Origin: Octopus vulgaris
Taxonomy: Eukaryota
Reading direction: 5' to 3'
DNA length: 64,000 bases
Assembly (NCBI GenBank): GCA_951406725.2
Contig: OX597821.1
Span: 107,570,001-107,634,000 of the forward strand
Position 1 is the first letter of the stretch, and each line of letters begins with the position of its first letter. The notes beneath the pieces were generated by a model, which was given only the letters and a program-made list of their open reading frames with translations, did not search any database and had not been told where the DNA came from. A program made the translations under genes and the position numbers. Below are positions 10,088 to 58,648 of this stretch, in pieces.

Positions 10088-10292
10088 GTTAATCCAAACA
10101 TGAAAGCACAATAAAACACAACAACGCGAGGATGTAGAACAAATATAGTATTATTGGACGCTCAGGAAAGAATGAGTGTTTAACGTTTCGAGCGGAGCTC
10201 TTCGTCGGAAACATAGAAGGAAATATCCAGAGAAGGGAAGACAGAGGGAAAAAAATCGCCACGGGTACACACGCGGTCACATTTTGAATCAA
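10088..10292 (-). mobile_element. Solo PLE-terminus element with hammerhead motif (10178-10212)
   Basis: Reverse-complement match to 19660-19875. Stem I gttt/aaac is intact. Flanked by (TA)n and (TG)n. Confidence 0.8.
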
Positions 10293-10600
10293 TATATGTG
10301 TGTGTGTGTGTGTGTGTGTGTGTGTGTGTGTGTGTGTGTGTGTGTGTGTGTGTGTGTGTGTGTATTATTTGTGGCTTAACAATGCTATCGGTGGCTTCAT
10401 GCAGAAAAATCCTGCAATTTGTCAAGCACTCCACTTAAGAATGTTGCTATTCAGCTTTCATGTTTGATGACAAGGAGTACTTGACTTCGCTTAGAGATAA
10501 GAATAAAAAAACATGCAACATCTTTGTCTAATCTGGGAGAGAACCTTAAAGATTGGATGGTGGACAACCCCCAAATAAACTGGAGTATCATAACTAAAGC

Positions 10601-10900
10601 TAGCAGAAAAAGCGATGAACTAACAGAAAAAGCGGTGAGCTGGCAGGAAAGGTGGTGAGCTAACAGGAAAGACGACTGACTTGTTGAAGAAGCAGCGAGT
10701 TAAGAGGAAAGACGGAGATCTAGCAGGAAAGGCGGTGAACTAGCGGGAAAAGCGATGAGATAAGAGGAAAGGCGGCTGGGTAGCAGCAAAGGCGACAAGT
10801 TAGCAGAAAAGGCGTGGAATTCGCAGGATAGGCGACGAGTTAGCAGGAAAAGCGGCGAACTGGCACGAACAGCAGTGGAATAACAGGAAAGGCGACGTAA
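10601..10900 (+). repeat. 20-bp minisatellite, ~15 diverged units
   Basis: Consensus tagcaggaaaggcggcgagc at exact 20-nt spacing. Confidence 0.85.
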
Positions 10901-11486
10901 TGGTAGAATTTTTAGCGCATCAGATAAAAATACGTAACAGTATTTCCTTCCGTCTCTTGGAATTCTGTGTTCAAATTTTGCTGAGGTTAATTTTGCTTTT
11001 CACCTTTTCGGAATCGATTAAAACGAGTACCATTTTAAGTACTGAAACCTATGGTAATCAATCCTAAAACCTGTCGGTCTTTGCCAAATTTAAAAAGAAT
11101 CTCTTCTTAAGATATTCAGCCAAGTGTTTATAGCTTTTCCAGTTGCTTGTTGGATTTTTTTACAGTTCTGTAGTATCTACATCGTGGTCAAGATACTACT
11201 GATTCTTCAGACAGTTACGGGTATGCAAATACACCAACACCAGTTATGAAGCGGTGATAGAGAACAAACACACACACACACAAACTCACACACACACACA
11301 CACACACACACAAATATATATACGACGGGCTTTTTCGGTTTCCGTCTGCAAAATCGACTCACATGGTTTTGGTCAACCTGGGACTGACCAAAACCGCTTT
11401 GAAGTGCTACCATAGAACACCTGCTCAGTATTAGATGGTCATTGTAGGTTAAGCGACAATCAGAGGCGTGGTTCCGCGGCCGCATA

Positions 11487-11992
11487 TCTATATATATAAA
11501 ACTCTAGTTGTGTGAGTGTCTGTCCCCTTCGATTTAGATTCCTAACTCCTCCCACATTTTGCGGTGCAGTTTAACCAAATTCGGGTATCTTATAGTCGTG
11601 ATTCATATCGAGCCCGTCTGGGTATTAGCGCGCGTCAACGATGAGTCTACGATTTTAAAAATAATTTAACATCATTTTTTATTCCATTTTAATGCATAAA
11701 ATGCATCGTATGTCGATGGCGGCGGAGTTGGCGTCCACGCTCACAGCTGCACCTGTTTGCTTCTCCCCCTTCCCTCCCTCGTGAAGCTGTGGGGAAGGGA
11801 GTGTAAAGAAATCAACGTCGTAATGCGTTGTGAAGGAAACCAGCGTTCTTTTAGAACAACGACTTCATGGCTTGAAGACACCAAAACAAAAATGGCTAAG
11901 AAAGCCCGAATTTATAAGGGAAGTAACTCTCTAAAAATGCTTATATAGTTATTTCCCTTACAAACCCGAGCAACGCCGGGCGATACTGCTAG
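11487..11992 (+). mobile_element. Non-autonomous Helitron
   Basis: A|TC 5' end (tctatatatataaaa), subterminal hairpin cccgagcaacgccggg, CTAG|T 3' end, no TSD. Confidence 0.8.
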
Positions 11993-56199: not shown

Positions 56200-57400
56200 C
56201 AATTATGAAGTGAATTTTAGGGCTTATAAATCTAATATTCTCCTATCCTTTCGTTAATACTGGTTCCCATATGCTGCTCATATCTGCACTCGGTCTGCTT
56301 AGGAGGTTGTTGTGTCCTAGCATATGTGCTGCTTCTTTTAGTTTTCGTATTTTCCAGTGGTGTTCTCTGTCTATTATTTTAACTTCATCCCACAGGAGGA
56401 GGTGGTCTCCATTTTTCCATACATGATCAGCTATACCCGATTTATCAATATCTCCTCGTGTCACAGCTTTGCGATGTTCCTCTACCCTTATTTTGAGGGG
56501 GCGGCATGTTTCGCCTTTGTATAACCTACCACAGCTGCATGGGATGGAGTACACGCAGTCTTTGGTCATATTCTCTTCTATTGGTGGTTTTACTCGAAGG
56601 AGATATTTGCAAAGTGTTGTATTACTCTTGAATACTGTCCTGATGTCATATGGGCCGCATATCTTTTGTATCTTTTCGGAGAGGCCTTTCACATAGGGTA
56701 AACAGACTGTGGACAGTTTTTTGGCCTCATCCTGTCTTTTTCATAATTGGAATGGATAGTATACTTTTGGGGTAGTTGTTGCTTAACAGATCGTTATTGA
56801 GCTTGATCATTTCTTCGTGGTGTGTATCACAATCGCTACTTATATTCTTTGCATGATGTTTTAAGCACTGAGCAGTCCCTCTCTTTACACTGTATGGATG
56901 GTGGGAATTGAAGTTGAGGTATCGTCCAGTGAAGGTCGGCTTGTGGTATACGGATGTCCTGAATCCATACTTGGTGCGTGTTATTAATACGTCCAGGAAT
57001 GCCAGCTGATTGTCTTTTCCCTTTTCCATTGTGAATGGTATGGATGGCTTTATTGAGTTCACATGATCTAACAGCACTTGGACATCTTCCTGGTGGAGCC
57101 AGAGTATAAAGCTGTCAACAACATATCGTAGCCATAGTGTTGGTCTAAGTGGAGTTGATCCTAAAGCCAAATTCTCAAAGTATTCCATGTATTTATCGGC
57201 TATTACCGGTGATAATGGCAAATCCATAGCTAAACCCACCTTTTGTCGATATATATCAGTGTCCATACTGAAGTAGGTAGTATGGACACTGATATATATC
57301 GACACTGACATAAGAAAGGAATAAAATGTTATCTTATGAACTCCATTAGCTTACAGCTGTTTCTGCTTCAAGACGCATTACTCAACTACGAATCCCAGCC
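56200..57400 (-). mobile_element. Penelope-like retroelement (Penelope/Poseidon-like), 5'-truncated
   Basis: RT C-terminal half (YRQKVGLAMDLPLSPVIA, WLRYVVDSF, LAFLDVLI, VYHKPTFTGRYLNFNSHHP) and GIY-YIG VYSIPCSCGRLYKGETCRPLKIRVEEH with no Cys linker; frameshift near 56720. Confidence 0.9.
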
Positions 57401-58169
57401 TGGGCCTGAGACCCCCTTCGGTCACGACACTGACCATGGGCTTGCACCTAGAAAGTTACCCTCCTAGTCACAAGTCTGGGCAAGGTTGTTTATGGAAGAC
57501 CAGCAGTCGCCCATGCATACCGGCCTCCCCTCTCCACGCCACCAGTGTTATCCAAGGGAAAGGCAGCAGCCAATACAGCTTGCCACCCGTGACGTCGCAA
57601 CTCATTTTTGCCAGCTGAGTTAACAGGAGCAACGTGAAATAAAGTGTCTTGCTCAAGAACACAACATGCAGCCTGGTCCGGGATTCGAGCTCACAACCTC
57701 ACGATCGTAAGCTTGACGCTCTAACCACTGAGCCCACTGCATAATATATTGGGATGGTTTGACGGGAGCTGATCAGCAGAAGAGCAGTCCAGGCTCCAAT
57801 TGTCCATTTCAGCTTGGTTTCTATGGCCGGATACCCTTCCTAATGCCAATCACTTTACAGAGTGTACTGGGTGCTTTTTATGTGCCACCGACATGTGCTT
57901 TAAACGTAGCACAATCATGAGTGCTCTATAAGTAGCACTGGCACAGAAGCTTTTTATGTGACCCCAAACAGGTGGTTTGTTGCATGGCATCAGCACGGGT
58001 GCATTGTATGAGGCACCAGAAGAGGTGCTTTTCTACACAGCACCAGCGCAGGTGTGTTTATGTGACACCAGCACCTACTGAGTTGATCGCTGTTGTTATT
58101 CGATGTTTAAGGTTATCGAGGGTAGTGGGTAGCAGTGGAACATAAATGCGCTCTTTTACATATCCCAAC

Positions 58170-58415
58170 CAGAAAAAAATCACACAACAGCGTTTAACTC
58201 AGTGTATCGTGATATGCTGATACACGTCTGGGAGGCATTCTCTTACCACATTGATGTTGCCCGTGCTGCAGACGGTGGCCACATTGATCACTTGTAAGAC
58301 AGGAAATAAAAGTTGTTTGTGAGTAAATACTTGTGACTTAGCTGGAGTCTTCTATTGCTTTTCCTTATTAAAATATCGCATAATGAAATCGGTTCATTCT
58401 TTTTGAATAACCCTG
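58170..58415 (+). mobile_element. Tc1/mariner-superfamily transposon 3' end
   Basis: TAFNSVYRDMLIHVWEAFSYHIDVARAADGGHIDHL* is a transposase C-terminus, followed by TIR ...ttttgaataaccctg. Confidence 0.7.
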
Positions 58416-58445
58416 TGTATATATATATATATATGTATGTATGTA

Positions 58446-58648
58446 TGATCGCCATGTTGATTCGCTAGCTTCTGCACGCATTTTTTTTCTCTCCGTGTTT
58501 CTTTTCTGTGTATCTTTCTGTTGAAGAGCGTAGGCTCGAAACGTAAAAGACTTGTTTTATTTATATTCCTGAGCGCCATACTAATACAATTGTTTGTTTG
58601 TATTCCACCTGCCTTCGTCTTTTGTTTATTTTCATAAAGCTTCCCGTT
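58446..58648 (+). mobile_element. Related solo PLE-terminus element with hammerhead motif (58513-58550)
   Basis: tcttt CTGTTGA A GAGC-gtag-GCTC GAAA CG TA aaaga; downstream tcctgagcgcca is shared with the other copies; lies within (TA)/(TATG)n. Confidence 0.7.

Follow-up and report, generated by a model that had tools for sequence, protein, structure and literature searches.

The window analysed here, a 64,000-nt stretch of the Octopus vulgaris genome (contig OX597821.1, positions 107,570,001 to 107,634,000 of the forward strand), contains one long copy of a Penelope-like element (PLE) and several units of about 200 bp that resemble its terminus and carry hammerhead ribozyme motifs. This raises the question of how the short units arose and whether their hammerheads take part in their spread. 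The original prediction was that an autonomous PLE and its ribozyme-bearing short derivatives form a microsatellite-targeted system with variant catalytic cores.

A Neptune-type element and its solitary termini

The coding part of the long copy begins with a Neptune-type PLE reverse transcriptase (RT) region at 16188–17421 (+), identified by tblastn with full-length homologues. Seven of the best 120 of 544 homologous proteins (E ≤ 0.001) were used for the alignment, and the four closest proteins tested are 51% to 68% identical to the RT region. The region is 5'-truncated (approximately 160 N-terminal codons are missing), carries frameshifts near 16915 and 17155, and stops just past the YIDD motif, with approximately 180 codons deleted at 17418–17421. 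A CX4CX2C linker and a GIY-YIG endonuclease lie C-terminal to the RT at 17418–17854 (+), as identified by translation, Pfam and tblastn, and contain another frameshift near 17740. The Pfam GIY-YIG match (E = 0.0016) is under the curated cut-off. The truncation, frameshifts and deletion mean that this copy cannot be autonomous, and BLAST within the window did not find an upstream pseudo-LTR (pLTR) for it.

The succession of a PLE RT, a CX2-5CxxC linker and, at the C terminus, a GIY-YIG domain is the layout of Neptune PLEs, which are also described as having a hammerhead-bearing terminal repeat and an insertion bias towards microsatellites (Arkhipova 2006, via Craig et al. 2021, PMC8557442). The linker, for which a role in Neptune has been proposed, is common to Neptune and Nematis (PMC8557442). 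The linker of the octopus element accordingly points to one of these two clades, and motif and similarity together suggest Neptune. The element shares the RT, linker, GIY-YIG domain, hammerhead-bearing terminal repeat and microsatellite insertion with the Neptune clade, but this copy is dead and has a longer spacer between the ORF and the terminus (1.8 kb, versus approximately 0.17–1.5 kb from ORF match to hammerhead motif in the related loci checked). The spacer (17900–19659, +) is CA-rich and strand-biased, with 417 CA versus 48 TG on the plus strand, and is likely the 3' UTR. One contig of another copy covers 19614–19716; the linkage of ORF to terminus across the 1.8 kb is seen in this single copy. 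Pen1, a Penelope element of the rotifer Adineta vaga, also has a long spacer before its 3' pLTR, which differs between copies that are 90% identical (Arkhipova et al. 2013, PMC3846280).

The 3' pLTR of the long copy spans 19660–19875 (+), as delimited by BLAST alignment of the copies and in keeping with a 205-bp hammerhead-bearing direct repeat in a related PLE locus (L021). Its 3' end is fixed and is followed by a (TA)n(TG)n flank at 19876–19945, read from the sequence and matched by (AT)n loose ends in a public contig run (X5, see below). At the other end of the element, the 5' junction meets a decayed CA/TA stretch, which fits a single insertion.

BLAST confirmed that the PLE terminus recurs alone. 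The first solo pLTR (10088–10291, −, 204 bp) lies between (CA)n and (TA)n and is 84% identical over 218 columns (19659–19875 against 10288–10087). The second (40671–40844, +, 174 bp) lies in (TA)n and is 88% identical over 184 columns (40672–40845 against 19692–19875 only), so that its 5' end is approximately 33 nt shorter. A third solo pLTR (58448–58647, +, 200 bp), in TA/TATG repeats, belongs to a related family: ungapped identity is 91% to 93% among the three close copies and 55% to 60% between these and the copy at 58448. A further solo pLTR (35638–35834, −), decayed and from a third related family, has (CA)n at its 3' end and had not been listed in the original prediction; beyond this fifth relative, BLAST and nhmmer across the window gave nothing below E = 7. 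The three close copies share their 3' end. The 5' ends of the four solo copies fall 50, approximately 64, 70 and 84 nt upstream of C3 of the hammerhead core (50 nt in the copy at 40671, 70 nt in that at 58448 and 84 nt in that at 10088), a spread of approximately 35 nt within a narrow zone.

A TA, CA or TG run occurs no more than 15 nt from each of the five 3' ends, compared with 2.7% of background positions; three of the four short copies are bordered in this way on both sides, compared with 0.35% of the background. The homology of the termini and their 3' flanks thus bear out the placement of these hammerhead-bearing sequences in microsatellites, and the 3' ends together with the (AT)n loose ends agree with the Neptune insertion bias. 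The claim that all copies sit inside (TA)n/(CA)n holds for the 3' side throughout and for both sides of three short copies, but the terminus of the long copy is flanked on its 3' side only. Other repeats of this window likewise end in microsatellites, so this adjacency is not unique to the hammerhead family. A reading frame of 41–42 codons that runs from stem I in the two short close copies was set aside, because the long copy interrupts it and the copy at 58448 has it shifted.

Hammerhead motifs in the termini

The motifs follow one order: helix I (4–5 bp), a 7-letter core, an extra A, a 4-bp GAGC/GCTC helix II, GAAA, CG, TH and the second strand of helix I. The long copy has a minimal type I hammerhead at 19737–19771 (+; C3 at 19741) with a U4C core and a predicted scissile bond at 19767/19768. 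It lies in the terminal repeat on the same strand as the ORF, a linkage across the spacer that is seen in one copy. Among the solo copies, the motif at 10177–10213 (−; C3 at 10208) also has U4C, that at 40717–40751 (+; C3 at 40721) has U4C plus G12A at 40740, where GAAA reads AAAA, and that of the related family at 58513–58550 (+; C3 at 58518) has A6U. The motif of the third family (35740–35774, −) is decayed: besides U4C at 35770 and G12A, its stem II contains a mismatch and its palindrome is disrupted.

A descriptor scan of the window gave three matches with at most one core mismatch and four with at most two, whereas 200 local dinucleotide shuffles gave means of 0.005 and 0.01, respectively, and a maximum of one. 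The scan recovered the four predicted motifs with the expected layout, including G12A at 40740. The descriptor was composed post hoc, with the motif already known, and three of the matches are homologous copies, so the scan shows a real repeat and not four independent events.

The same architecture was described by Cervera and de la Peña in 2014, with molluscan examples, for minimal hammerheads that mostly occur as single motifs and are probably tied to truncated PLEs (PMC4209133). The octopus motifs share with these a short helix I (3–5 bp), a base inserted between positions 9 and 10.1, a G10.1-C11.1 pair opening helix II, a palindromic CG (15.2–16.2) in place of helix III, a NUH cleavage triplet, U-rich flanks and a mostly single occurrence. 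They depart from the canonical core (CUGANGA...GAAA) and from the 2014 consensus in that position 4 is mostly C (four of the five copies), the copy at 58448 differs at position 6, and G12A occurs in two of the five. The part of the 2014 text available to us names U3-A8 as the sole core covariation and describes a descriptor with fixed catalytic boxes. The U4C form would escape descriptors of this kind.

Motifs of the same architecture were also found in related PLE loci from metagenomes (23 motifs in 20 of 80 loci). In one of these, L038, two such motifs flank an ORF. The termini of the window have no significant DNA match to the 80 loci (best E = 0.054), the exact degenerate motif has no match in metagenome and viral contigs, and protein alignment against viral contigs revealed no relative. 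Rfam gave no match at gathering score in the window and nine weak matches at 19500–20000, none to a hammerhead family; this result is uninformative because Rfam does not capture minimal hammerheads.

Stem I had been said to covary between families. Among eight pairs, we found one compensatory pair in one sequence and one G-U wobble, and stem covariation is too thin to count. Nearest-neighbour folding predicts that each monomer adopts an inactive rod. In all four copies folded, two such rods are more stable than the double hammerhead, by 5–7 kcal/mol. These energies are predictions and not a test of activity, but they agree with reports of low or protein-dependent cleavage. The hammerhead is predicted to be inactive as a monomer and to need a dimer or the protein of the element.

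Depth and core variants in public runs

To view the family beyond the window, four public runs were aligned to 19380–19880 at 80% likeness. Three consist of contigs and matched 3,762 (X7), 8,651 (X5) and 3,926 (X11) records. X7 is RNA by guess only and is not counted as evidence of expression. The element is absent from the fourth run, X23, which consists of raw reads: 100 of 12.9 million reads matched, 96 of them less than 90% alike. The species label of X23 is the same as that of the runs containing the element.

Summed depth peaks at the hammerhead core, at 5,930 (X7), 3,202 (X5) and 2,160 (X11) times the mean at 19584–19634. Contig depth is not copy number, and the ratio is a rough upper bound on short-to-long units, because the reference departs from the family majority at 19669–19692 and long copies with other spacers would be missed. 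Even so, the short units dominate and far outnumber the long ones. In X7, depth falls in the 5' direction through 801k, 271k, 49k, 7k and 1k per 17-nt bin, and through 435k, 129k and 23k at the known 3' end. The resemblance of the two tapers fits a unit boundary near 19655–19670; the 5' fall is steep but confounded.

The loose ends of the contigs point to the same boundaries. (AT)n follows position 19875 in 25 contigs of X5, and it stands behind or just inside 19875 in both X5 and X11. Sequence like that of the copy at 10088 precedes position 19692 in 24, 39 and 25 contigs of the three contig runs. Among the loose ends listed, none runs into an ORF start, and a head-to-tail connection of the 3' end with the 5' zone is absent from the nine joints listed (contigs drop rare forms). 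Depth downstream of the predicted cut at 19767/19768 is not above that upstream, and the bulk of the inserts are therefore not 3' products of cleavage.

Within the motif (19737–19771), three positions vary at 5% or more among the variants listed. The canonical U4 (T at 19742) makes up 26%, 31% and 23% of depth in the three contig runs. T is thus the minority, and U4C is the majority form and a trait of the family. At 19770, A accounts for 97% to 99% of depth, the G there being peculiar to the long copy; at 19771, T accounts for 8% to 14% and the outer helix I pair is retained as G-U. U4C is likewise present at 35770 in the third family and in two of the 23 motifs of the related PLE loci, of which 20 have the canonical core and none has A6U. 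CpG decay was considered as the origin of the T at 19742 and is unlikely, as the partner change G5>A is absent among the 41 variants listed. The proposal of variant catalytic cores therefore stands for U4C at the level of the family but not for A6U, which is confined to one copy and more probably represents a private mutation. G12A, which affects a CG dinucleotide in two copies, looks like decay. U4C is a natural variant in a viroid; it lowers activity in vitro yet permits viroid infectivity (PMC3088659). We propose that U4C is a tolerated family variant and that the hammerhead of the solo copies is a decaying passenger.

Origin of the short units

The short units are best read as solo pLTRs of Neptune-type PLEs, and we lean towards the view that they are by-products of full-length copying, in which the RT-endonuclease of a full-length element would write the unit into a TA microsatellite. 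Every copy spans the predicted scissile bond, which means that the template RNA was uncleaved (or re-ligated). Copying would begin at a fixed point approximately 108 nt downstream of the cut site and end 50–85 nt upstream of the core. A pLTR-ORF-pLTR transcript would contain this initiation site twice, and internal initiation in the upstream pLTR, copying back to the 5' end of the transcript, would give a unit of approximately 200 nt; early termination of copying from the downstream pLTR would give an identical product. There is a precedent in the PAc protein of Anolis, which nicks AT-rich DNA, starts reverse transcription internally in vitro, 111–118 nt within an ORF whose start is at helix II, and uses mainly unprocessed RNA, the hammerhead cleaving only with the protein (PMC11167929). 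In the octopus units, 126 nt separate the 3' end from the beginning of helix II. PAc belongs to the Poseidon clade and has an AC-rich initiation site, whereas the terminus here is U/G-rich. If internal initiation is correct, the octopus units would lend genomic support to the mechanism seen in vitro for PAc, and the solitary state of most minimal hammerheads in animal genomes would be accounted for.

The large excess of short units is also expected from a self-propagating family, which counts against the by-product reading. Such a SINE-like, non-autonomous family, which would carry its own promoter and depend on Neptune protein for copying in trans, is a possibility we hold to be clearly the less probable. 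The depth excess of approximately 10^3 over upstream sequence and the narrow range of lengths (174–204 bp) in three related families speak for it. In a rotifer, pLTR sequences alone were reported to be enough for integration in trans (PMC3846280), and non-autonomous PLE derivatives are known, such as MRC1 (PMC8557442) and retrozymes (preprint 10.64898/2026.07.22.740005). The two short close copies also have in common an 8-nt gap relative to the long copy. The gap region is polymorphic in length across contigs (gaps of 4, 5, 8 and 11), however, and differences at 19770, 19785 and 19823 are confined to the long copy. Neither these nor the shared gap is therefore diagnostic. Also against a self-propagating family are the unequal 5' ends, the presence of G12A in two of the four solo copies, and the fact that transcription was seen in no run, X7 being only guessed to be RNA. 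We regard as tentative, too, the fuller version of this idea: a monomeric, microsatellite-targeted SINE-like family of the Neptune pLTR only, amplified roughly a thousandfold beyond its master, mostly U4C and with a canonical-U4 subfamily alongside. If this were true, the U4C/U4 pair would be a natural in-genome comparison of the role of ribozyme activity in Penelope retrotransposition.

Recombination or deletion between two pLTRs, as for solo LTRs, has been proposed for the solo pLTRs of rotifers (PMC3846280) and would yield units of pLTR length. We consider it improbable here, as the interior would have to be lost in the great majority of insertions and the sole long copy of the window retains its interior without an upstream pLTR. 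Least probable is that the units are monomers of a non-LTR retrozyme spreading through hammerhead-cut circular RNAs: retrozymes of comparable length have PLE pLTRs as their source and also occur as monomeric copies (10.64898/2026.07.22.740005), but in the window the unit forms no tandem array, no head-to-tail joint is among the nine listed, the ends are collinear and not permuted, and its ribozyme is of the minimal type, unlike the canonical ribozymes of coral tandem retrozymes (PMC7229834).

The octopus units resemble animal non-LTR retrozymes in being short and non-coding, in their type I hammerhead, in their pLTR kinship and in the occurrence of monomers (PMC7229834; 10.64898/2026.07.22.740005); they differ in their non-canonical core and lack of tandems in the window, as those retrozymes are defined in these sources by tandem repeats and circular RNA and often have canonical ribozymes. 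The same 2026 preprint derives retrozymes from pLTRs and reports that PLE insertions mostly retain one terminal repeat. In A. vaga, Penelope pLTRs of 193–218 bp and solo pLTRs are described (PMC3846280); the latter belong to the Poseidon clade and are few, and the word microsatellite is absent from the text of that paper as available to us. We also compared PMC6765202, PMC12602865 and PMC6155905, in the portions available, and the available text of PMC13282606, in which the word hammerhead does not occur. With single minimal hammerheads, truncated PLEs, solo pLTRs and microsatellite bias already in print, the arrangement is not a new system. All parts are of known kinds, and the sole unusual detail is the common U4C core change. 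In the literature compared, which did not extend to Lünse et al. 2017, a paper that may describe U4C, we found neither this family nor a PLE hammerhead with a U4C majority described. Two observations are worth keeping, the U4C/U4 split and the marked surplus of units of pLTR length. The family gives a modest handle on the role of PLE hammerheads: copies that span an uncut bond, a C/U split at position 4 and the dominance of termini of approximately 200 bp.

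Microsatellite-resident elements around the long PLE copy

The long, dead Neptune-type copy of the Penelope-like element (PLE) is flanked on both sides by inverted copies of a short repeat (16064-16186 and 20804-20926; 82-88% alike), the end of which is a CA microsatellite. The 5' junction of the long copy falls at the microsatellite of the 16064-16186 repeat. Immediately past its 3' flank, between TA runs, lies a 239-bp element with inverted termini (19946-20184), which resembles a mariner-type MITE.

A 408-bp element (20325-20732) sits in (TA)n and has inverted termini of 54 bp that are 91% alike. 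A 90-bp piece at 14819-14908, also in (TA)n, repeats the end of this element, and together they constitute a second microsatellite-resident family beside the hammerhead-bearing termini. This family is possibly another PLE terminus pair; in the window scan, a CTGAGGA stretch near 20609, inside the 408-bp element, did not fit the hammerhead descriptor.

A second PLE coding remnant and variant hammerhead cores

A decayed fragment encoding PLE reverse transcriptase and GIY-YIG domains (56243-57350, minus strand) is of another type than the Neptune-type long copy. Its identity to the Neptune-type proteins is about 25%, and it is probably Poseidon-like. A search for a hammerhead core next to this fragment found none. 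Among related PLE loci from metagenomes, three carry minimal hammerheads with variant cores (L002 3293(-), L080 2536(-) and L031 79(-)), comprising two U4C variants and one G8C.

Run X23 and tandem repeats

The raw DNA run X23 almost lacks the high-copy PLE terminus, while bearing the species label of the runs richest in it; the label or the sample therefore differs. Within the window, a 184-bp unit forms tandem arrays at 4433-5103, 45214-45688 and 39650-40050, with many scattered pieces elsewhere.
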